Positions 2,880 through 46,076 of a stretch of 50,418 nt of DNA are shown here, piece after piece (within the stretch, counting starts at the first letter, position 1; every line of letters starts with the position of its first letter). The stretch is from Clostridia bacterium (lineage in GTDB: Bacteria > Bacillota > Clostridia > Oscillospirales > CAG-272). The stretch spans positions 1 through 50,418 of the forward strand of contig JAFWAA010000051.1 in NCBI GenBank assembly GCA_017507905.1, read 5' to 3'. Below the pieces are notes generated by a model, which had not been told where the DNA came from, did no database searches, and saw only the letters and a program-made list of their open reading frames with translations. The position numbers were made by a program, and so were the translations under genes.

Positions 2880-3030
2880 GAGTTTTCTCCAATATTTTTA
2901 TAAAAAAGTTTTTCTTTTTTCATTTTAGGGCTCAAAAGCGGAAGCGGAGGACGAAAAAGGGGTGTTGAGGGGAAAACTCGCGGTGAAAAAAATATTTTTC
3001 AAAAAAAATCAAAAAATTTTGAAAAAGGGG

Positions 3031-3059
3031 TTGCAATTTGAAAAAAAGTATGCTATAAT
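3031..3059 (+). promoter_or_regulatory. sigmaA-type promoter of tRNA-Glu
   Basis: TTGCAA, 17-nt spacer, TATAAT with TG extension; A/T-rich UP-like region upstream. Confidence 0.8.
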
Positions 3060-3078
3060 AGGCAAGGTTTGAAGCCAC

Positions 3079-3153
3079 GGCCCGTTGGTCAAGCGGTCAA
3101 GACGCTAGCCTCTCACGCTGGAAACATGGGTTCGATTCCCGTACGGGTCACCA
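3079..3153 (+). tRNA. tRNA-Glu (anticodon CUC)
   Basis: GGCCCGT...ACGGGTC acceptor stem, anticodon loop CT-CTC-AC, GGTTCGATTCC T-arm, encoded CCA. Confidence 0.95.
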
Positions 3154-3192
3154 AAAAAGAAACATCCGAACACCGTTCGGATGTTTCTTTTT
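3154..3192 (+). terminator. Intrinsic terminator after tRNA-Glu
   Basis: AAAAAGAAACATCCGAAC-acc-GTTCGGATGTTTCTTTTT. Confidence 0.85.
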
Positions 3193-3374
3193 ATCCAAGC
3201 CGACAGGCTTGGCATGGAATCACGCGTCAGCGTGCATGGAATCGCCGCAGGCGTATGGCATCACCGCAGGTGTATTTCTCTGTCGGCTTGATTCCATACG
3301 CGACTTCGTCGCAATTCCATACCGCGGCGAGCCGCGGATTCCATACACGCCTTCGGCGTGATTGGGACGCGGAA
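3192..3374 (+). repeat. tRNA-associated seven-hairpin structured element, copy A (ncRNA or ssDNA structure)
   Basis: Seven short hairpins separated by three YATGG(A/C)AT and three ATTCCATA linkers; both ends identical to the copy at 32452-32655. Confidence 0.85.
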
Positions 3375-3385
3375 AGGAGAAGAAG

Positions 3386-3739
3386 ATGGCAAAGAATTTG
3401 TTGCTTGAATATTCCGAACAATTAGCTTGTGAAATTGCAGCGCTTTGCAACGAGCACAAAATAGACTCCAATACCGTATATCAAATCAAAAAATCCTCAT
3501 CAAGTGTTTTCGCCAACATTTCCGAAGCTCAATATCCTCAAAGCCTCGCAGATATGCTATCCAAATTTGAAATCGCACGAAAGGAATGTGCAGAGACCGA
3601 AAGCTGGCTCAAATTAATTTTCTCTTCCGGAAGTATTGACGAAAGCACCTTTAGGCGGCATCGCAATCTCTGTGGAAGAATACGCAGAATGCTGACAGCA
3701 TCGTGCATAACGATCGAAAGCAAAATAAAGCAAGGCTGA
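3386..3739 (+). CDS. Four-helix-bundle protein (23S rRNA intervening-sequence protein / Avd-like fold)
   Basis: AAGGAG RBS. Motif QIKKSSSSVFANISEA...SLADMLSKFEIARKECAETESWL matches the family pattern QxxRSxxSxxANIxE...FxxKxxIAxKExxETxxWL. Confidence 0.85.
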   Translation: MAKNLLLEYSEQLACEIAALCNEHKIDSNTVYQIKKSSSSVFANISEAQYPQSLADMLSKFEIARKECAETESWLKLIFSSGSIDESTFRRHRNLCGRIRRMLTASCITIESKIKQG

Positions 3740-3755
3740 AAAGCCTTGCTTTTTT
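3727..3755 (+). terminator. Intrinsic terminator overlapping the four-helix-bundle stop codon
   Basis: AAAGCAAGGCT-gaaa-AGCCTTGCTTTTTT. Confidence 0.75.
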
Positions 3756-3772
3756 CATTGGTTCCCTTTCCC

Positions 3773-4006
3773 AACGGCGAAATTCCCGTAGGATACTTCC
3801 CTACCGCACGTCTTGCGACGTGCGGTTTCTTTTTTTGCCGATTCCGCGCGCGGAATCGGAGAAGCGTCTGCTTGCAGACGCTTGGGTTCGCATACCCCGC
3901 CCGAAGATCGGAAAGCTCGCTTTCCAGGCGCAGGGCGAGGGTATATTCGCTAACGGCGAAATTCCCGTAGGGCACTTCCCTGCCGCACGTCGCAAGACGT
4001 GCGGTT
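3773..4006 (+). repeat. Two 55-bp direct repeats (3773-3827, 3952-4006) ending in a CCGCACGTC-N4-GACGTGCGG hairpin
   Basis: AACGGCGAAATTCCCGTAGG..ACTTCCCT.CCGCACGTC....GACGTGCGGTT occurs twice; a third partial copy lies at 11378-11443. Confidence 0.85.
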
Positions 4007-4033: not shown

Positions 4034-7000
4034 TTAGAAAAGCCTTTTCCTTCTGCCGATGGCCGCAAGGACAGCCAGAACGCCGCATCCTGTCAGCGAA
4101 ACTCCTGCCATGGAGCACGAAACCGTGGTGAGGGACTTGAGCTCGTCGGTCTTTTCCTCAAGCTCTGTGTTCTTTTCCGCAAGCTCGCCGTTCTTCTCCT
4201 CCAGCGCCGCCTTGATTTCATCAAGATCCTTCTGAATTGCCCTGATCGCTCCGTCGAGAGCCGCATACGCTTCCTCGATCTTTGCGGTCATAGCCGCCTT
4301 GTCTTTCGCATCTGCCGCTTCAAGAGCAGCCTTTGCCGCATCAAGTGCCTTATTCAGATTGATGATCTTACCGTCAAGGGCTGTGTCGCCGTCGGCGATC
4401 GCCTTACCAAGCTCTGCCTTTGCATCGTCGAGATTCTTCTGAACGGTCTTGATCGCTCCATCGAGAGCCGCATCTGCCGCCTCGATCTTTGCGATCAGCT
4501 CTGCTTTAAGCGCTTCGTCTGCCGCACCGTATGCGGAGATCGCATTTTCCAGCGCCTTGCCAAGATCGGCGATCTTGCCGTCAAGCTTCGTATCGCCATC
4601 TGCTATCGCCTGCTCGAGCTCTGCCTTTGCATCGTCGAGATTCTTCTGAACCTCTGCGATCTTTGTATGGAGTGCGCTCTCTGCCTCGGTGATCTTACCG
4701 TCGAGGGTCTCGTCACCTGCGGTAGCCGCCGCCTTTGCCGCCTCGATAGCCTTGTTCAGAGCGTCGATCGCCTCCGTAAGTGCGTTCGCATTGTTAAGGT
4801 CTGCTGTCTTGAGCTCCTCAACAGCCTTGTTGAGATTTGCCTGGACCTCTGCTACTTTACCCTCGAGTGCCTTGTCAGCCTCGTCGATCTTTGCGTCAAG
4901 CTCGTTCTTGAGAGCGGTGTCGGAGGTGGTAGAAAATGCCCTTGCATCCTCGATCGCCTTATTCAGCGCTGTGATAGCGTCCTCAAGCGCCTTTGCGTCA
5001 GCCGCGTCAACAGCCTTCAATTCCTCGATCGCCTGTTCGATCTTACCGATAGCCTTTTCCGCATCGGTAAGTCTTGCGTCAAGAGCCGCGATCAGCTCGT
5101 TTGCCTTCTTGATCTCTTCATCAAGCACAGCCTTCAAAGCCGCATCCTGCGTGTCAGCATACGCTTCCGCCTCCTTGATGAGAGCCTTCAGCACGTCAAC
5201 CGCCTTGTTCAGCGCATCGGTATTGGACTTGTCAGCCGCTTCAAGCTCGCCTACTGCCTTGTTGAGGGCCGCGGTGTAAGCGTCGGTCACTTCCTGCTTT
5301 GCCGCCGCGATGGCATCCTCAACCGCCTTGTCGGTGGCGTAGGTGCTGTCAAGTGCGTCGATAAGGTCTGTGACCTTCTTGATCTCTGCCGCAAGCTCGT
5401 CGGGATCGATCTGCGCCGCGATCTTTGCTTCAAGCTCGCCTACCGCCTTGTTGAGGGCGTCGGTAAGCTTGGTTTCCAGTGTATCAAGCGCCGTGTCGAG
5501 AGCTTCTATCGCCTTTGTCAGCGCGGAATCCTTGTTCGTCAGATCGGTAAGCTTCTCAAGTGCTTCGATAGCCTTGACCGCCTCCGCGATAGCGTCAGCG
5601 TTTGCCTTTACGTTGTTCACGTCAGCCGCGCCGACCTTTTTTTCAAGCTTTGTCACACGCTCGGTGAGCTTTTCGATCAGCTCGTTGAGCTTTTCGTCAG
5701 CCGCCTTGTAAGCGTCCTCAAGAGCGGTTATATCGCCTTCAGCCGCCTCAATTGCCTCCTTTGCCTCTGCCATCGCTGTCTCAAGAGCCGTTACTCGGTC
5801 AACAAGCACGCCGATATCGTCGGTATCCAGTCCCGCAATAGCGTTTTCCAGCTTTGCGAGAAGGTCGGAGGAGCTGGTAGCCTTCAGCTCGATGGGGGTA
5901 TCCGAAGTGAATTCAAAGTACTTGCCATCCATCGTTTGAACATATACCCACAGGTAAACAGAGTCTCCCGGATCAACGTTAAGATTGAGCACGTCTGTGT
6001 AATTGTCCTGCTTTGTATGTCCCGAGCTGTCATTTATGCTGTAGAGGAAAGCGTATTGATATGTGCTGTATTCGCTTGTGATCTCCTCACCCGTGTCGGC
6101 GCGGTATATCTTCACCGCAAGGGTAAGGTCGTCGCCCGGAACGATCCACTCCGGAGCAACGATCGCTGCGTAGATGGGTGCTTGGACGATCTCGTAGTCC
6201 AGCGTATCGGTATCGCCGTAATTGCCTATGCCGGTGATCGTTGCTGTGTACGTTTTAGCAGGGATAAAATCACTGCTGTCCCAGCTGATTTCGTAGTCCA
6301 CGCCCTCGGTGAGGACCTTGTCGCCGTCCTTTACGGTAACGGTGGGCACGTGAGACTCGCCGTCGTAAACGGGAGGTACGGACTTATCGTGAGAGATCTG
6401 AAGCTCACCCACGGGTTTGGGGGTTATGGTAATGATATCGTGAAATTCGCCTGTAAAGTTGATGCCTGCTGCGGTTAAAAGCACCTTCTTTTCGCCTGCA
6501 TTTGTGAAATCCCATGTGCTGAAGGAATCTATGTATTCATAATATAACTTGAGCTCGAGATCGATCCTGCCGTCATCGTCAAGGTCAAAGCCCACCTTGA
6601 GGTTGGGGGTCTTTGGTGTACCGTCGTAGACTGCGGTTTTTCCGGTATAATAATCACCGTACTCTACCATAAAGCTGTCCGATCCAAAGTCCAGAGGACT
6701 GATTGTGACGGTATACGCAAAGGTCTCGGGCAGGTCGTTGTGGTTACTGTCGCCCACTACCTTGTAATAGACATCATACTCACCTGCATCCTTCTTCGTT
6801 TCCATGTAGGAGAGCCACTCGCCGTCGTTTACCTTATACATTACGGTTCCGTCATTTGTGCTTCCGATCATATCGTAGAGCGCCTGCTCGGTACCGTTGT
6901 AGAAGATAGTTGTGTTATTGATCACGGGTGCGATGACCGCAGCAGCCCCCTTTTTGATGGTCCATGTGACTTCCTCAGGCGTCAGATCGGGAGCTTCCTC

Positions 7001-10000
7001 ATCGTTCCTTCTGATCTCGGTGCTGAACCTGACTTCTAAGCCCTGTTCGCCTGCGCTCTTCTTATCGCCGGTATATTCAATATAGTAATATTTGTCATTG
7101 TTGAGATCATACGTGCCATTGCCGGTCTTTATGGCGACGGTAACGGTAGGTACCTGTTCACCGCCGTTGTAGGTGAATTCGGTCTCGCTCTGCGTAATCG
7201 AAAGCTTGCCTATGATGACCTCGCTGTCGTGGAGGAGCTTGCTTGCGCTACTGATATTCTCGTGAGCAAAGGTCTTTACAAGGGAATCTGCATCAGGCTC
7301 ATTTACCATTACGATCTGATCAAGATTCGAGCCGATTTCGCATCCCGCGCCTACGGTGATGACCGCATCTGTATTTCCATCTTCGTCAGCTCGACGGTCC
7401 ACGTATATGGTGTCGGTAAGGTCTCTGTCTATATGAAGTGTTCCCTTGCTGTTAACGAAGGTGACGGAGGCTACGCTGTTATCAAAGTCGACGAATGTAA
7501 GCTCGCAGTATCCCGCAGAAGCATTTCCCTCGGATATGTATATACCCGTTTCGCCGCCCACGGTCAATTTGTTCGCGCCGGTGTCGACGACCGTTTTGCC
7601 CACGAGACTCAAGCGTCCGTTGACAAAGATGGAAGCGTTTTGCGAAGCCTCGGTTTTTATGACGGATACGTTTTCTTCGTGGAGATTCACCACCACAACG
7701 TTAGCGTCCTCTTCGACGATCAGCGCAATAAAATCGGAGCTTACGATATCGTATCCGTTAAGATCGAGGCGGAAATGGGGGAGGTCTCCGCTTATGGTCA
7801 GGGTATCGTTAAGGTCTGTAAGAAGGGTGACCACGGGATGAAGCACTTGAGCGGATATGCCTCCATTGACAAGGCTAACGATCCGATCAAAGGCATCCTC
7901 CACCTTGAAGTAGAGCTCTGTCGCCCCCTCGGCATCAGCGTCGCCGCTTGTGATGTAGTCAAGCTTTGCCTCTGCCTGCGCACCGCAAGCAAGACACTTG
8001 CCGTTCGCGTCAAAGTGTTCCGACGCAATAACGTCCATATCGTGAGACACAGTCTTTTCGCTGTTGGAGTAGATCCAAGTACCGTCACATTCGAGCCGGT
8101 TGTAAACCTGATTTGTTTCTGTTCTGAATACGGGAAGTGCGTCCACGGTCTCGCCGTTGTCAACGTTCTGACCGAAAGCGTCACCCAGAAGGTGCGCAAC
8201 CTCGCCGCTTGCAAACTGTGCGGAGGTCTTGGCGGTGGTAACCTCCGCCACATCCTCAGTTGTGTTGCCCAGTCCTGCGTTGCCGATGCCGTTCTGGGGA
8301 GCACCATAGCCGTCCTCGGCACAGTCGCTCAGATAGTAGCAGTTCTGCACGATGCCGTCATTACTTCCAACCACGCCGCCGACAAATTCGTTGCCGCTGA
8401 CAGAACCGGTATTGTAGCAGTTCTGTACGGTGCCGCTGTAGTTCTCTCCAACCACGCCGCCGACATTATTCATGCCGATGACGGTGCCTTGGTTGTAGCA
8501 GTTCTCTACGGTGCCAAGGTTATATCCAACCACGCCGCCGACATAATAATTTCCGTTAAAATAGGAATCGATCACTCCTACGTTCTGCACCTTGCCGTTC
8601 GTGCCTACGTAGCCGAACAGACCCACGTAGTCTACGGCGCTATCATCGAAATACAAGCCGCTTACGGTCTTGCCGTTTCCGTCGAAGACGCCGGTGTATC
8701 CGTTCGAGTCATTACCGATGGGAGTCCACAGTCTGAAGCCCGAGGGATCGGGGAAGGTTTTTGCCATTTCGGTAAGGACGCCCTCGTTGACTACGATATC
8801 TTTGGTCAGAATGGCGTCCGCACTTGTATTCTGCGCCGTGCCGTCGGTCAACGTACCGTTCACCAGTGCCGCAAACCAATACAGCTTGCCTGCGTTGTCG
8901 ATCTCGTAGTAGCCGTCGCCGTCCGAGTCGGTTGCGGGCTGATATAGACCTTCTTCGGCGCACTCGGCGCAGAAGCCGTTGCTTGCTTCGGTGAAGGTGT
9001 GGGGCTTCGTCTTATCTTGAAGAGCCGCGTCGTTTGTGTATGCTACCGTTGTGCCGTCGCACCCGATGCACGGATAGACTTTGTTTGTAGCGGTTATCTT
9101 TACCGGAAGTTCGTCTACGGTCTCACCGTTGTCAAGGCTCTGACCGAAAACACCGTTCGACAGGTACGCAACCTCGCCGCTTGCAAACTGTGCGGAGGTC
9201 TTGGCGGTGGTAACATCCGCCACATCCTCAGTTGTGCTGCCCTGTGTTTCGTTGCCGATGCCAAATTGAATTGTACCTGCGCCGTCCTCGGCACAGCCGC
9301 TCAGATAGTAGCAGTTCTGCACGTTGTCGTTATTACTTCCAACCACGCCGCCGACATATTCGCTGCCGCTGACAGAACCGGTATTGTAACAGTGCTGCAC
9401 GGCGCTGCTGATCATGTTACGTCCGACCACGCCGCCGACATATTCGCTGCCGCTGACAGAACCGGTATTGTAGCAACGCAGCACGGTGCCGCCGTCATTC
9501 GTTCCAACCACGCCGCCCACATAGCTCACACCGCTTACGGTAACGTTGCTGTGGCAGTCGAGTACATAGGAGTTGCTTGCGAGATATCCCACGACGCCGC
9601 CTGCGGATCCGTTCCCACCGCTTACAGAGGAGTATATCGCTCCGCTTACGTGCAAATTTTGGATAAAATTATAGCCCAGGCCCAGGTCGCCGGGATTATA
9701 TTGGACATACCCGAAAAGTCCGACGTATTTGAGCTCTTGATTGGGAGATGCAGAGCTGCCGATGGTAAGGCCCTTGACGGTATAGCCTGCGCCGTCAAAG
9801 ATGCCGCTGAATACGTTATGCGAACCGTCGATACCGATGGGGATCCACGGTTTTCCCGAAAGATCGATATCCTTCGAGAGCTTGATGAATTTGCCCGAAA
9901 AAGTACTTGTCGTTGCCGTTGAGTCATTGATGCCTGTGAGCTCGGTTGCGTTGCCGTCATATCGGTTCACCAGCGCCGCAAGTGCCGCAAGCTGTGCCGA

Positions 10001-10240
10001 GGTAGAGATCTCGTAGGGGCTATCCTTCGCTCCGGTCTTTCCACCATTGGTAGACGCGTTAAACGGCGAGAAGTCGGCGTAGGTGTACGTGTTCGTGTCC
10101 GGAACGTACTCTCCCCAGGTTCCCGGAGCAGCCTTTTCCGCCGCGCTTGCGCACAGCGAGAACGCGCCGAAAACGGTGACGATCATCATGACCGAGAGCA
10201 AAAGCCCGGTTATTTTCCTCTTGTTGTTTGTTTTTTTCAT
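4034..10240 (-). CDS. 2068-aa cell-surface fibrillar/adhesin-like protein (signal peptide, two GLUG-repeat domains, beta-sandwich repeats, long coiled coil, C-terminal membrane anchor)
   Basis: GGAGG RBS; signal peptide ending ASA; repeated YVGGVVG..N...V..CYNTG GLUG motifs; YDG..PTVTVK repeats; ~550-aa A/E/K/L heptad region; hydrophobic C-terminus followed by RRKRLF. Confidence 0.85.
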   Translation of the reverse strand: MKKTNNKRKITGLLLSVMMIVTVFGAFSLCASAAEKAAPGTWGEYVPDTNTYTYADFSPFNASTNGGKTGAKDSPYEISTSAQLAALAALVNRYDGNATELTGINDSTATTSTFSGKFIKLSKDIDLSGKPWIPIGIDGSHNVFSGIFDGAGYTVKGLTIGSSASPNQELKYVGLFGYVQYNPGDLGLGYNFIQNLHVSGAIYSSVSGGNGSAGGVVGYLASNSYVLDCHSNVTVSGVSYVGGVVGTNDGGTVLRCYNTGSVSGSEYVGGVVGRNMISSAVQHCYNTGSVSGSEYVGGVVGSNNDNVQNCYYLSGCAEDGAGTIQFGIGNETQGSTTEDVADVTTAKTSAQFASGEVAYLSNGVFGQSLDNGETVDELPVKITATNKVYPCIGCDGTTVAYTNDAALQDKTKPHTFTEASNGFCAECAEEGLYQPATDSDGDGYYEIDNAGKLYWFAALVNGTLTDGTAQNTSADAILTKDIVVNEGVLTEMAKTFPDPSGFRLWTPIGNDSNGYTGVFDGNGKTVSGLYFDDSAVDYVGLFGYVGTNGKVQNVGVIDSYFNGNYYVGGVVGYNLGTVENCYNQGTVIGMNNVGGVVGENYSGTVQNCYNTGSVSGNEFVGGVVGSNDGIVQNCYYLSDCAEDGYGAPQNGIGNAGLGNTTEDVAEVTTAKTSAQFASGEVAHLLGDAFGQNVDNGETVDALPVFRTETNQVYNRLECDGTWIYSNSEKTVSHDMDVIASEHFDANGKCLACGAQAEAKLDYITSGDADAEGATELYFKVEDAFDRIVSLVNGGISAQVLHPVVTLLTDLNDTLTISGDLPHFRLDLNGYDIVSSDFIALIVEEDANVVVVNLHEENVSVIKTEASQNASIFVNGRLSLVGKTVVDTGANKLTVGGETGIYISEGNASAGYCELTFVDFDNSVASVTFVNSKGTLHIDRDLTDTIYVDRRADEDGNTDAVITVGAGCEIGSNLDQIVMVNEPDADSLVKTFAHENISSASKLLHDSEVIIGKLSITQSETEFTYNGGEQVPTVTVAIKTGNGTYDLNNDKYYYIEYTGDKKSAGEQGLEVRFSTEIRRNDEEAPDLTPEEVTWTIKKGAAAVIAPVINNTTIFYNGTEQALYDMIGSTNDGTVMYKVNDGEWLSYMETKKDAGEYDVYYKVVGDSNHNDLPETFAYTVTISPLDFGSDSFMVEYGDYYTGKTAVYDGTPKTPNLKVGFDLDDDGRIDLELKLYYEYIDSFSTWDFTNAGEKKVLLTAAGINFTGEFHDIITITPKPVGELQISHDKSVPPVYDGESHVPTVTVKDGDKVLTEGVDYEISWDSSDFIPAKTYTATITGIGNYGDTDTLDYEIVQAPIYAAIVAPEWIVPGDDLTLAVKIYRADTGEEITSEYSTYQYAFLYSINDSSGHTKQDNYTDVLNLNVDPGDSVYLWVYVQTMDGKYFEFTSDTPIELKATSSSDLLAKLENAIAGLDTDDIGVLVDRVTALETAMAEAKEAIEAAEGDITALEDAYKAADEKLNELIEKLTERVTKLEKKVGAADVNNVKANADAIAEAVKAIEALEKLTDLTNKDSALTKAIEALDTALDTLETKLTDALNKAVGELEAKIAAQIDPDELAAEIKKVTDLIDALDSTYATDKAVEDAIAAAKQEVTDAYTAALNKAVGELEAADKSNTDALNKAVDVLKALIKEAEAYADTQDAALKAVLDEEIKKANELIAALDARLTDAEKAIGKIEQAIEELKAVDAADAKALEDAITALNKAIEDARAFSTTSDTALKNELDAKIDEADKALEGKVAEVQANLNKAVEELKTADLNNANALTEAIDALNKAIEAAKAAATAGDETLDGKITEAESALHTKIAEVQKNLDDAKAELEQAIADGDTKLDGKIADLGKALENAISAYGAADEALKAELIAKIEAADAALDGAIKTVQKNLDDAKAELGKAIADGDTALDGKIINLNKALDAAKAALEAADAKDKAAMTAKIEEAYAALDGAIRAIQKDLDEIKAALEEKNGELAEKNTELEEKTDELKSLTTVSCSMAGVSLTGCGVLAVLAAIGRRKRLF

Positions 10241-11377: not shown

Positions 11378-11443
11378 CCGCACGTCGCAAGACGTGCGGT
11401 TTCTTTTTTTGCCGCTTCCTCGCGCGGCACGGGGAGGCGTCTG
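11378..11443 (+). repeat. Third copy of the CCGCACGTC hairpin repeat (direct repeat of 3804-3870); probably also a terminator
   Basis: CCGCACGTCGCAAGACGTGCGGTTTCTTTTTTTGCCG.TTCC.CGCGCGG...G.GA.GCGTCTG. Confidence 0.8.
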
Positions 11444-25598: not shown

Positions 25599-26909
25599 AT
25601 GAAAAGATTGATCTGTATGCTCGTTTTGCTCGGCCTCTCCCTGCTTACTCTTGCAGGCTGTCAACGTCCAAGCGATCCCTATCAGGAGGCCATGGCGCTT
25701 CTGGAGCAGGGCAAGATTGAGGAGGCCTATGAGCTCCTGCTCTCGATCGGTGACCGCGAGGACGGCAAAAAGGAGCTGGCGCATTTTTATACCGTACCCG
25801 TAAAGAGCAACAGCACGTACACCGCTCCATCGGTAGAGCTGACGCAGGAATACGCCTACACCTACAATGAGAAGAATCTCCCCGTACAGATCCTTACCAA
25901 TGGAACCCTGAGCGGGACGCAAAGCACAACCTACACCTACGATGAAAAGGGCAACCTGATCAAAGAGGTTGACGTATACGTTAACCAATCCTCGCAGATC
26001 AACGAATACGTCTACGACGCCGAGGGGCGGATCCTCAAGAAAATCCGAATCGACACAAATGGCCAGCAGTACACCGACGAATACACCTACGATAGCACGG
26101 GAAAGCTGACCGCGCTGCTGCAAACGGCCCCCTCGGGCAAAGCAACGGCGCATACCTACACCTATGATGCCGACGGAAACCGCGTAGGCGAAACCGTCGT
26201 CCACCCCGACCGATTCAGATCCTTTTACACCTATGCGGCCGACGGTGAGCTGATCCTGCGCGTCAAGGTGAGCGGCGACGGCCAGGAATGGGCGCGCTAT
26301 GAGCTTACCTATGACGAGAATGGCCGCCTGCTCCGCAAGGTGGACCGTATGCAAGGCTCCTACGAGAAGGCCGAGGACTACTCCTACGACGAGAACGGCA
26401 ATCTCGTCCAAATGCTTCAAAATGACGGACACACCACCCAAACCTACACCTATACCTATGACGAGCGCGGCAACCGCCTCACCGAGACCCACGTTGCACC
26501 GGGCGGTGTGGTGCGCTCGGTGATTGAGCACACCTACGATACCAACGACCGTCTGATCCAAACGAAAAAAGGAGACACCGTTACCACCTACGCCTACGAC
26601 GAAGAAGGACACCTGACGCGCAAGGAGGAGGTCTTGCCGGGCGGAAAGAAAAACGTTTTTGCCTACACCTACAACGAAAGAGGCAGGCTGATCGAAAGCT
26701 TGATCACACGGGTGCTTTCCTCCGGCAAGGAGCGCAACTACCGATACGTTTATGACGCCTACGGAAATCCGGTCCACTCTGTCGAGCCCAACCTGGACGG
26801 CAGCACGTCGGAGGTCACGTCCGAATACAAGCTCGTTTACCTTCCCTTCCCCCTCTCCGAGCAGATTCTGGAGCTGGGGCTGATCCAACCGATCCCCTCG
26901 GCAGAATAA
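25599..26909 (+). CDS. YD-repeat (Rhs-like) lipoprotein 1
   Basis: AAGGAGG RBS; lipobox LAG-C; short TPR-like helix pair; about 13 Y.YD..G.L repeats. Confidence 0.88.
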   Translation: MKRLICMLVLLGLSLLTLAGCQRPSDPYQEAMALLEQGKIEEAYELLLSIGDREDGKKELAHFYTVPVKSNSTYTAPSVELTQEYAYTYNEKNLPVQILTNGTLSGTQSTTYTYDEKGNLIKEVDVYVNQSSQINEYVYDAEGRILKKIRIDTNGQQYTDEYTYDSTGKLTALLQTAPSGKATAHTYTYDADGNRVGETVVHPDRFRSFYTYAADGELILRVKVSGDGQEWARYELTYDENGRLLRKVDRMQGSYEKAEDYSYDENGNLVQMLQNDGHTTQTYTYTYDERGNRLTETHVAPGGVVRSVIEHTYDTNDRLIQTKKGDTVTTYAYDEEGHLTRKEEVLPGGKKNVFAYTYNERGRLIESLITRVLSSGKERNYRYVYDAYGNPVHSVEPNLDGSTSEVTSEYKLVYLPFPLSEQILELGLIQPIPSAE

Positions 26910-26943
26910 TCCACCGAAAGGCCAACCAAAAGGAGGAAAACCC

Positions 26944-28188
26944 ATGAAACGCTTGCTTTGCCTGTTGCTCCTGCTCTCCCTGTTCACGCTTTCCCTTCTC
27001 TCCTGCGGCGAGCAGGCCTCTGATTATCGCCAAGCAAAGGCTCTGCTCGAGCAGGGCGAGCTTGCCAAGGCCTATGGTCTGCTGCTCTCTCTTGGCGACT
27101 ACAAGGACGCCGAGGAGCTGCTCGAACATTTCTGCTTCGTTCCCACGGAGGGCTCGTCCACGATCTTCTGCGACTGGGGGCAGACTCCTTTGTCCGACTG
27201 CGAATACGTCTTTACCTATAACGAAAAGGGCCTGCTGACGAAATACGATCGCGCGGGCAATACCACGGTCTATGTCTACGACGAGCAGGGCCATCTCCTG
27301 GAGGAGCGCCTCACCCGCTCATGCGACGAGCAGGGCTGTCTCTCGGAAGCGCCTGACACCGGCTCCACCCATACTACCCTCTATACCTATGACGAGCACG
27401 GCAATCGGATCAGCATGGTCCGTGTCCGTACAGACGAGGAATGGGAGGTATGGTACTACGAGGAATACACCTACGACGAAAAGGGCAACCTCCTGACCGA
27501 AACGCATTTTTCCAAGGATCCCAACGCAGCCGATCTCCCCTTTGAGCTTCCCTTCCGCCAGGAGCTGGCCTACGCCTACGCCTATGACGAGGCAGGCCGC
27601 GTGATCCGCAAGGAGCGGACCTGCGAGGACGATAAGCAGGTCATAGAATACCGCTACGACAACGCCGGCCTTCTTCTCGAGGAGCGCTTTACCCAAAACG
27701 GCGGGGCAACCGTGGTCACTGCCTACGTCTATGACGAGGCAGGAAGGATCCTCCGCTCGGTATCCCCGAAGAAAGAGGTCAATTATACCTACGACGGGCA
27801 TGGAAACCTGACCCGGAAAGAGAGCCTCACCGCCTCCGTCGGCGGCTACACCAGTCTCTCGACCGACACCTACGAATACACCTACGACGAGAGCGGAAAC
27901 GTGATCAAGCGCGTGGAGGACCTCGCGGGGCTTAAGCCCTGCGTGTACGAATTCGTCTACGACGAGGACGGCGTGCTCCTGGAGCAGATCCGCACCAGCC
28001 AGTCGGCCGACTACAACGTAGAGACCGTTATCCGTGAGCGCTATGACCCTTACGGGAATGTGATCGAGAAGACCGTTACGAGTGTCGGCCTCATCACCAC
28101 CGTCACCACAATGACCTACGAGCTTGCCTATCTCTCCCCCGAGAACGGCGCCTTCATTCAATCCATCATCGACTCGATCTTCCCCTGA
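26944..28188 (+). CDS. YD-repeat (Rhs-like) lipoprotein 2
   Basis: AAGGAGG RBS; lipobox LLS-C; LGDYKDA motif; about 11 YD repeats. Confidence 0.88.
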   Translation: MKRLLCLLLLLSLFTLSLLSCGEQASDYRQAKALLEQGELAKAYGLLLSLGDYKDAEELLEHFCFVPTEGSSTIFCDWGQTPLSDCEYVFTYNEKGLLTKYDRAGNTTVYVYDEQGHLLEERLTRSCDEQGCLSEAPDTGSTHTTLYTYDEHGNRISMVRVRTDEEWEVWYYEEYTYDEKGNLLTETHFSKDPNAADLPFELPFRQELAYAYAYDEAGRVIRKERTCEDDKQVIEYRYDNAGLLLEERFTQNGGATVVTAYVYDEAGRILRSVSPKKEVNYTYDGHGNLTRKESLTASVGGYTSLSTDTYEYTYDESGNVIKRVEDLAGLKPCVYEFVYDEDGVLLEQIRTSQSADYNVETVIRERYDPYGNVIEKTVTSVGLITTVTTMTYELAYLSPENGAFIQSIIDSIFP

Positions 28189-32334: not shown

Positions 32335-32363
32335 ATTATATCATAATTTTACACATTTTGCAA
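32335..32363 (-). promoter_or_regulatory. sigmaA promoter of the islet gene
   Basis: TTGCAA, 17 nt, TATAAT with TG extension. Confidence 0.7.
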
Positions 32364-32451
32364 TATATTTCGAAAGATTTTTGTTAGCATTCCAAATGAT
32401 GCGGCATCTGACGGTGATATGCTGCATTTTTCTTGCAAACAGGACGCTGCC

Positions 32452-32655
32452 TTCCGCGTCCCAATCACGCCGAAGGCGTGTATATCATCCTGTTCCAAAG
32501 GAACGGCATATCATCAATGCGAAGCATTGTATATCATCAAGCCGCAGGGAAAATGCACGCTGGCGCGTGATGAGATACAAGGGCGGCTCGCCGCCCTTGA
32601 TGATATACACCGCACTTCGCGCGGTGATGATATGCCAAGCCTGTCGGCTTGGATA
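32452..32655 (-). repeat. tRNA-associated seven-hairpin structured element, copy B
   Basis: Same ends and architecture as 3192-3374, with linkers YATATCAT/TATCTCAT x3 and ATGATATR x3. Confidence 0.85.
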
Positions 32656-32691
32656 AAAAAATTCGACAAGTCGAAACTTGTCGAATTTTTT
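32655..32691 (-). terminator. Intrinsic terminator after tRNA-Arg
   Basis: AAAAAATTCGACAAG-tttcga-CTTGTCGAATTTTTTT. Confidence 0.85.
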
Positions 32692-32768
32692 TGGCCTACC
32701 CGAAAGGATTCGAACCTTCGACCTTCAGAGTCGGAGTCTGACGCGCTATCCAGCTGTGCCACGGGTAG
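32692..32768 (-). tRNA. tRNA-Arg (anticodon CCG)
   Basis: CTACCCG...CGGGTAG acceptor stem, anticodon loop CT-CCG-AC, GGTTCGAATCC, encoded CCA; 77 nt. Confidence 0.95.
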
Positions 32769-32840
32769 AGATGAATTGATTTTGCCCTTCGCTACCTTCA
32801 ACGTCGGAGCGGACACGCCATCCGGCTGTGCCACGGGTAG
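32769..32840 (-). pseudogene. Degenerate tandem copy of tRNA-Arg(CCG)
   Basis: CTACCCGTGGCACAGCCGGATGGCGTGTCCGCTCCGACGTTGAAGGTAGCGAAGGGCAAAATC aligns with the adjacent tRNA; T-loop and 3' acceptor strand are lost. Confidence 0.8.
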
Positions 32841-32857
32841 TTTCGGAAAGCACTCGT

Positions 32858-44640: not shown

Positions 44641-45198
44641 ATGAAAGCAACCGGAATTGTAAGAAGGATCGACGACCTCGGACGCGTCGTCATTCCCAAA
44701 GAGATCAGAAGAACCATGCGTATCCGCGAGGGTGACCCCCTGGAAATTTATACCGACCGCGAGGGGGAGGTCATCTTCAAAAAGTATTCCCCCATTGGGG
44801 AGCTGGCCTCCTTTGCCGCGCAGTACGCCGAGACCCTGCACAAGACCTGCTCGCTCTCGGTCGTGATCTGCGACCGCGACGCCGTGATCGCCTGCGCGGG
44901 CGTTCCGCGCAAGGAGTACACCGACAAGTCGCTCTCCCAGGAGCTTGAGGAGATCATTGAGGGACGCAGCCTCTACGTGCACCGCGAGGACGCCCCCGCC
45001 CTGCCCGTCCTGGCCGACAACCACGCGCACGCCGTGCGCTGCGCCATGCCCATCATCAGCGAGGGCGACGTGCTTGGCTGCGTGGCCTCGGTGGGAGAGG
45101 GCGACGCTGATCCCCGACACCGCTCCCCCATCGGCGAGGTAGAGACCAAGCTGATCCTCACCGCCGCCGGCTTTTTAGGCAGACAGCTGGAAACCTAA
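44641..45198 (+). CDS. spoVT: Stage V sporulation protein T
   Basis: MKATGIVRRIDDLGRVVIPKEIRRTMRIREGDPLEIY...KKYSPIGEL, GAF domain, AAGFLGRQLE. Confidence 0.96.
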   Translation: MKATGIVRRIDDLGRVVIPKEIRRTMRIREGDPLEIYTDREGEVIFKKYSPIGELASFAAQYAETLHKTCSLSVVICDRDAVIACAGVPRKEYTDKSLSQELEEIIEGRSLYVHREDAPALPVLADNHAHAVRCAMPIISEGDVLGCVASVGEGDADPRHRSPIGEVETKLILTAAGFLGRQLET

Positions 45199-45345
45199 CC
45201 CAGCTTCCCTTTACGAAGATGCCGTCGGTTTTCCGGGAAGACAGCCGGAAACCTAACCCAACCTCCCTTTACGGAGATGCCGTCGGTTTTTTGGGAAGAC
45301 AATTAGAAACCTGACCCAACCTCCCTTTACGGAGATGCTTTCGGC
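45163..45345 (+). repeat. Three tandem 58-bp units beginning with the last 12 codons of spoVT
   Basis: Units start at 45163, 45221 and 45279, with a partial unit at 45337. Confidence 0.9.
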
Positions 45346-45399
45346 ACTCCGCGAAGGGCGTTGAAGTCCGCGTAAACGCGCGGCCGTTGAAGCAAAACG

Positions 45400-45920: not shown

Positions 45921-46037
45921 TTTTACAGAGGAAATCTATACGCCTTTCCCTTCTGCTTTTACAAAGGAAGGTCTGTGCGCCTTTCCCTTCTGCTTTTACA
46001 GAGGAAGATCTATGCGCCTCTCCCTTCTGCTTTTACC
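45921..46037. repeat. About three tandem 36-37-bp repeats
   Basis: TTTTACA(G/A)AGGAA(G).TCT.T.CGCCT(T/C)TCCCTTCTGC at 45921, 45957 and 45994. Confidence 0.85.
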
Positions 46038-46076
46038 GTTTACCGAGGGAAAGATGTCCTCCTTCTTCCTCCCCCC

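Follow-up and report, generated by a model that had tools for sequence, protein, structure and literature searches.

A tRNA-linked hairpin array of gut Clostridia: an orphan copy of a repeat family in which small hairpins are joined by one short word

REP, BIME and REPIN sequences, which are mobilised by RAYT, are extragenic multi-copy mosaics of palindromes and short linkers, often arranged as inverted doublets. Four-helix-bundle proteins of family PF05635 are encoded by open reading frames within 23S rRNA intervening sequences, and include Avd of diversity-generating retroelements; to our knowledge, no role of PF05635 proteins is known outside these retroelements, and Gut-1 has been an orphan motif since 2010. 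The main text describing the latter calls it a likely non-coding RNA and reports it from gut sequences (Weinberg et al, 2010; PMC2864571). Its Rfam model (RF01706; gathering cut-off 50 bits) consists of three hairpins joined by GUGAAAU. A "23S rRNA IVP" is listed among CRISPR-linked proteins in a figure legend of PMC10910872. The element described here, copy B, is a gene-less orphan copy of a repeat widespread in gut Clostridia, in which small hairpins are joined by one short word.

Copy B lies in a stretch of 50,418 nucleotides (hereafter the window; contig JAFWAA010000051.1 of assembly GCA_017507905.1) from a Clostridia bacterium, where it occupies positions 32452-32655 on the minus strand; rereading confirmed the sequence that an initial, sequence-only reading had given for it. 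It starts 36 nt after the gene for tRNA-Arg(ccg) (32692-32768, minus; ARAGORN, and Rfam tRNA with 58 bits), directly behind a terminator made of an A-tract, a hairpin and a T-tract (32656-32691, minus). Copy A (3194-3375, plus) is placed likewise behind tRNA-Glu(ctc) (3079-3153, plus; ARAGORN and Rfam), and both copies abut the terminator of a tRNA in the same orientation, as the sequence-only reading had stated. Directly upstream of tRNA-Arg, a truncated tRNA-Arg-like duplicate (32770-32845, minus) was observed, in which the acceptor 5′ strand, the D arm and the anticodon arm are present and the T arm is absent.

In copy B (all parts minus), the head hairpin CCAAGCC-GACA-GGCTTGG (32635-32652) is followed by a left arm (32556-32634) with linkers CATATCAT, TATATCAT and TATCTCAT, a centre (32538-32555) containing CTGCGGCTTG, a right arm (32466-32537) with linkers ATGATATA, ATGATATG and again ATGATATA, and the tail ATTGGGACGCGGAA (32452-32465); in both arms a hairpin follows each linker, the final one being the tail hairpin CACGCC-TTCG-GGCGTG common to both copies. 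The corresponding parts of copy A (plus) are the head at 3195-3212, the left arm at 3213-3272, the centre at 3273-3290, the right arm at 3291-3360 and the tail, of the same sequence, at 3361-3375. Inverted-repeat pairs bore out that both copies have the same head hairpin (18 nt) and the same last hairpin with its tail (29 nt), letter for letter. The inner hairpins differ and yet stay paired, apart from a bulge in hairpin 6 and one G-U pair in hairpin 2 of copy B. All six linkers differ between the copies (left/right CATATCAT/ATGATATA in copy B and CATGGAAT/ATTCCATA in copy A), and left and right are still complementary, with 7, 8 and 7 of 8 pairs in nested left-to-right pairing in copy B and 7, 7 and 7 of 8 in copy A. 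The third left linker is mismatched in both copies, owing to an internal C. Apart from that bulge and G-U pair, the initial description proved accurate.

Both copies fold more stably than shuffled sequences (z = −7.1 for copy B and −4.7 for copy A; none of 200 shuffles was equally stable). For copy B, a ladder fold with linker helices between the hairpins was calculated at −78.5 kcal/mol versus −70.2 kcal/mol for the hairpins alone, and for copy A at −66.4 versus −53.9 kcal/mol, an advantage of ∼8 to 12 kcal/mol. The minimum-energy folds of both copies use left/right registers other than the nested ladder.

Behind the tail of copy A, the ribosome-binding site of a PF05635/TIGR02436 four-helix-bundle gene (3386-3739, plus) follows directly. 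Its product matches Pfam PF05635 with 66.4 bits (cut-off 33.8), TIGR02436 with 71.1 bits (cut-off 24) and PDB entry 2rld with E = 4.5e-10. Scanning 2950-3800 for promoters returned a single promoter-like site, that of tRNA-Glu (3031-3059, plus), and none of the PF05635 gene's own; a terminator-like hairpin (3727-3752, plus) closes the unit of tRNA-Glu, array and PF05635 gene. As no promoter of its own was found, the array of copy A is probably the 5′ leader of a tRNA-array-PF05635 transcript. Downstream of copy B, the window's list of open reading frames contains no PF05635 gene, and the promoter scan indicated a promoter-like site of the next gene (32335-32363, minus). The full form of the element is tRNA, terminator, two-armed array and PF05635 gene, of which copy A is a complete and copy B an orphan example. 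Other repeats of the window are a 23-nt perfect palindromic hairpin occurring three times (3803-3825, 3983-4005 and 11378-11400), two of these palindromes flanking 160 nt behind the PF05635 terminator; YD/RHS-type repeats at 25850-28000 (families D3 and D6-D8); long coiled-coil repeats in a 2068-aa surface protein (4034-10240, minus); and tandem repeats of 58 nt (three units, 45163-45356) and 37 nt (three units, 45935-46045; families D9 and D18).

With Gut-1, the element shares rows of short GC hairpins with a constant, purine-rich word of 7-8 nt, UUC-type loops and the occurrence in gut metagenomes; in the right arm of copy B these are ATGATAT words and TTC, TTT and TTCG loops. The two inverted arms, the head hairpin with an inverted copy at the centre and the shared tail distinguish it from Gut-1, as do its site behind tRNA terminators and the PF05635 gene, none of these features being described in the main text on Gut-1 (PMC2864571). 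When 32380-32780 and 3060-3420 were searched with Rfam at E ≤ 10, only the tRNAs and chance-level hits were obtained and no match to Gut-1, and no Gut-1 hit reached the gathering score in the whole window. Elsewhere in this genome, an array behind tRNA-Val(gac) scored 69.6 bits and nine others scored between 22.7 and 48.8 bits. Rfam Gut-1 models one arm of one sub-type of the array family.

The arrays resemble REP, BIME and REPIN sequences in lying outside genes, in occurring in many copies and in being mosaics of palindromes with short linkers, often as inverted doublets. In REP-type sequences, however, conservation lies in the palindrome, and here it lies in the linker, the hairpins varying freely (124 distinct among 266 parsed). 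An HUH enzyme distributed along with the element had been envisaged, but a partner of the RAYT type was rejected: the profile of Y1_Tnp/RAYT (PF01797) found no match in this genome (92% complete), and control genomes were positive. As in 23S rRNA intervening sequences and with Avd, a PF05635 gene stands beside a highly structured RNA of a stable-RNA operon or retroelement, the gene of copy A apparently depending on the tRNA promoter; unlike there, the element does not interrupt an rRNA helix, its structured part is a repeat array, and no reverse transcriptase was noticed in the sequence inspected. The CRISPR-type arrays, as portrayed in PMC10910872, likewise alternate a short constant repeat with variable spacers, but here the repeats have 8 nt, the spacers are self-complementary hairpins and the arms are two and inverted. 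Classification as a CRISPR array, which would have repeats of ∼23-50 nt, non-palindromic unique spacers and cas genes, was discarded on account of the 8-nt repeats and the hairpin spacers. Among the papers listed in searches on tRNA hairpin arrays and on four-helix-bundle intervening sequence proteins, none dealt with such arrays; supplements may hold more.

When copy B was used as BLAST query, matches were obtained in 30 of 61 related genomes (23 of 36 within the genus), with up to 15 matches per genome, and the head pattern was present in 39 of 78 genus genomes. The arms were typed across these 78 genomes for 60 additional head-bearing places of ∼100 listed, plus other head-bearing loci; eight rows were left out (five reverse-strand artefacts, two terminator-like heads and one duplicate). 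Left and right arm were both of type B in 59 copies and both of type A in six (plus copy A of the window), one copy joined a B left arm to an A right arm, and the reverse combination did not occur. Twenty-three copies were truncated or untypable, 14 of them having a left arm of type B but little or no right arm and 9 being solo heads. Type A is marked by the word ATGGAAT and type B by ATGATAT, each with its own sister clade of PF05635, and copies of either type were found in several genomes. Judged from their sequences, A and B are two sub-families sharing one scaffold. The coordinated compensatory change in six linkers that had been read from the two window copies is thus a difference between sub-families and not a change at the tRNA-Arg locus; it spread by recombination or concerted evolution, not by six local compensatory mutations.

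The same genome (1.6 Mb in 63 contigs, here G000) contains further B-type copies (contigs C27, C19, C29 and C59), fragments (C21 and C37) and arrays with other word pairs, namely ACATCATT/AATGATGT (C12, C52 and C3), CGTGATAT/ATATCACG (C39), AGTGATATT/AATATCACT (seven copies) and TGAAATC/GATTTCA (C36 and C20), as well as the word GTGAAATA at the start of C36. Across the genus, at least 10 linker types were seen, all of which have complementary left and right words, and in one arm all words share an RTGAWR-like core. One-armed arrays are also present in this genome; those at C4:17259, C9:37698, C45:5649, C57:42432 and C57:73595 combine TGATAT with 12-nt hairpins from a small stock (GCGCTGCGCGCG, GCACTTCGTGCG and GTCCTTCGGACG) and lie inside a larger repeat with conserved flanks. 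Another variant is AT-rich and almost free of hairpins, with the word TTCATTA/TGAATAA in tandem (G000 C20:23590-23700; L126, L128 and L132), a tRNA upstream and a PF05635 gene downstream. Contigs C6, C8, C10, C16, C19, C29, C36 and C39/C46 end in an array or within a few hundred bases of a tRNA gene, and assembly breaks next to tRNA genes are probably caused by the arrays.

Several copies bear marks of exchange. The same hairpins recur at differing positions in different copies, which indicates that hairpin units are shuffled between copies. Hybrid L099 (G090:C168) has left linkers of type B (TATATCAT) and right linkers of type A (ATTCCATA), its first right linker ATGCCATA being the exact complement of the third left linker of type A, and copy L038 has mixed words. 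In locus L085 (G079:C12), two complete B-type arrays stand in tandem. L014, at the tRNA-Arg(ccg) locus, shares its flanks with copy B and has other hairpins; in L059, at that locus as well, only the head and one A-type linker are left, which looks like a deletion rather than an empty site. Sixteen of 29 arrays, of several linker types and with differing sequences, repeat the 5′ half of the head perfectly and in inverted orientation at their centre, over at least 10 nt. In copy B, CTGCGGCTTG in the centre is the inverted 5′ half and loop of the usual GCA-loop head of B-type copies, as comparison of head and centre revealed; to its own GACA head the centre has no match, only 9 complementary nt located in a linker, and this mismatch suggests that copy B is mosaic, an apparent recombinant. 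An inversion switch between the head and its inverted copy was considered and dropped, a flipped left arm being found in none of 66 typed copies.

How the arms relate to each other is apparent from their loops. In the A/B family these are mirrored, with GAA/GCA in the left and TTC/TGC in the right arm, and the word arms of 22 other arrays have loops that are 75% pyrimidine, their anti-word arms loops that are 69% purine. A ladder fold would not need such mirroring; judged from their loops, the two arms are inverted copies of one polar DNA unit. Both orders of the arms relative to the flanking genes occur. Among 882 stem positions of the 124 distinct hairpins, 831 (94%) were Watson-Crick pairs, 26 G-U, 10 A-C and 15 other. 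The excess of G-U over A-C (26 to 10) was rejected as a strand test, as it is confined to the left arm (24 to 5, compared with 2 to 5 in the right arm) and stems mostly from one hairpin family. Selection on structure, as originally proposed, holds insofar as stems are kept while their sequence is free and the words of the left and right arm match as complements in all linker types seen; against it, the variable end bases of left and right linkers did not covary in any of nine registers (48 B-type copies), the C of the third left linker is conserved (41 copies) and compensated in only four, and L099 pairs unlike arms.

Upstream sequence of 150 nt or more was available for 84 copies, 52 of which follow a tRNA on the same strand. 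These tRNAs belong to 13 species, 12 of them found with B-type copies and tRNA-Lys with an A-type copy, and arrays other than A and B also stand behind tRNAs in the same genome. Near-identical terminators precede B-type copies behind other tRNAs, and close variants of copy B's terminator, with a different loop, were found in C27, C19, L014, L016, L017 and L033. Modules of ∼130-190 nt ending in a tRNA-like T-arm, acceptor and CCA were seen in G000 contigs C27, C29, C39, C56 and C3; they are followed by a copy of the neighbouring tRNA's terminator and are sometimes arranged in tandem behind real tRNA genes, and the array in C27 is preceded by one such module rather than a called tRNA. In assembled contigs of two public metatranscriptome runs, short contigs covered the array, with the same pattern as in a DNA run, which is no sign of transcription.

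PF05635 genes are present in 56 of 78 genus genomes. In this genome, the profile gave four hits, two of them halves of one gene across the contig ends C39/C46, and all three genes stand behind arrays, each with a different word. Among the best 30 loci in the genus, two had too little upstream sequence; in the 28 assessable ones, the gene was preceded by a two-armed hairpin array in 22 cases, by an AT-rich word-only array in three and by neither in three, and for 12 of the 30 ARAGORN placed a tRNA no more than 520 nt upstream. When 35 PF05635 proteins (median isoelectric point 8.5, only mildly basic and uninformative) were arranged in a tree, linker type changed 12 times, with 11 as the minimum; shuffled assignments averaged 26.1 changes and were as low in 0 of 200 shuffles. 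The proteins linked to A and to B group as sisters, and the three genes that lack an array fall into a single clade. Linker words follow the clade of the PF05635 protein and not tRNA identity, a pattern that physical linkage alone also predicts. The notion of the linker as a specificity code thus fails for tRNA identity, as the B-type word occurs behind 12 tRNA species, and stands for the protein clade to the extent that linkage leaves room for it. At least five B-type arrays in this genome (92% complete assembly) are accompanied by no B-clade PF05635 gene.

The explanation that we hold to be probable, if by a modest measure, is a joint one: copy B is an orphan of a modular array family, and in a tRNA-linked PF05635 cassette the array forms a folded leader or control module. 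The order of the unit would be tRNA gene, terminator, head hairpin, left array (an 8-nt word plus a hairpin of free sequence), centre, right array with the reverse complement of that word, tail and PF05635 gene. In single-stranded nucleic acid, the arms would fold back on each other so that word pairs with anti-word between the hairpins, and the four-helix-bundle protein would have its cognate nucleic-acid partner, or its control region, in the folded array; the element may act either as RNA or as DNA. Unit turnover and gene conversion would keep the words within one element similar to each other and so account for six linkers changing together. Several observations fit this explanation poorly: fine-scale left/right covariation is absent and the third-linker mismatch mostly uncompensated; the hybrid L099 and the mixed-word L038 exist; a ladder fold has no need of mirrored loop composition; the G-U excess comes from the left arm only; most B-type copies sit between a preceding terminator and a following promoter, which is the reverse of what an RNA gene needs; B arrays occur in this genome without a B-clade gene; and the match of word and clade is expected from linkage alone.

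An alternative that we consider unlikely, albeit the most serious one, is a double-stranded DNA element. The word would then be a protein site present at least three times per orientation, in an operator or iteron array upstream of the promoter or at the ends of a non-autonomous transposon, with the hairpins being only GC-rich spacers or extruding as cruciforms. Arms that are mirror images down to the composition of their loops, arrays placed between terminator and promoter, a right arm that in many copies reaches up to or into the −35 hexamer of the promoter downstream, and the lack of fine-scale pairing covariation are all consistent with such an element, as are the numerous, mosaic copies varying between genomes and the RTGAWR-like core, which pure pairing would not demand. 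However, the words of copies A and B are spaced by 19 to 30 bp, which would put binding sites out of helical phase, and perfect stems in 124 distinct hairpins call for single-strand folding. At least 10 words in one genus would require as many DNA-binding specificities. Furthermore, neither target-site duplications nor terminal inverted repeats were noticed in an unsystematic look at A and B copies, and no Y1/RAYT transposase was found in this genome.

We regard it as quite improbable that the element is a structured small RNA of the Gut-1 type that stands by itself and works in trans, for instance by sponging up a protein at multiple sites, and that its neighbours are incidental. The main text of PMC2864571 rates Gut-1 as a likely RNA, but not as a cis-regulatory one or a riboswitch, and the strong fold z-scores and the loop types, which include UUCG, GNRA-like GCAA and GUAA, would suit an RNA. 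Yet, in both window copies no promoter was found before the array and no terminator after it, both fail the Gut-1 model, the arms occur in both orders relative to flanking genes, and an array next to PF05635 in 22 of 28 loci is not incidental. Very improbable, finally, is stepwise compensatory mutation of the six linkers under selection, with the word encoding the tRNA or cargo served: complementary left and right linkers between an identical head and tail in A and B would agree with it, but the B word behind 12 tRNA species largely refutes it for tRNA identity, and the recurrence of both types in several genomes, the recombinant centre of copy B matching a GCA-loop head, and the state of the tRNA-Arg(ccg) locus in L014 and L059 all speak against it.

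The fixed order in which tRNA, terminator, two-armed array and PF05635 gene follow each other ties Gut-1 to PF05635 and makes both testable. It also accounts for assembly breaks beside tRNA genes, and short-repeat finders may flag such regions. As a more speculative extension, which we consider doubtful, the 8-nt word might be a recognition code, each PF05635 clade binding the word that belongs to its array, displayed several times between the hairpins of a scaffold of folded RNA or single-stranded DNA. If so, the arrays would represent a new class of programmable protein-nucleic-acid module carried by tRNA transcription units, as the tRNA equivalent of 23S rRNA intervening sequences, and two orphans, the Gut-1 motif and the IVP/Avd-like family, would gain a function.
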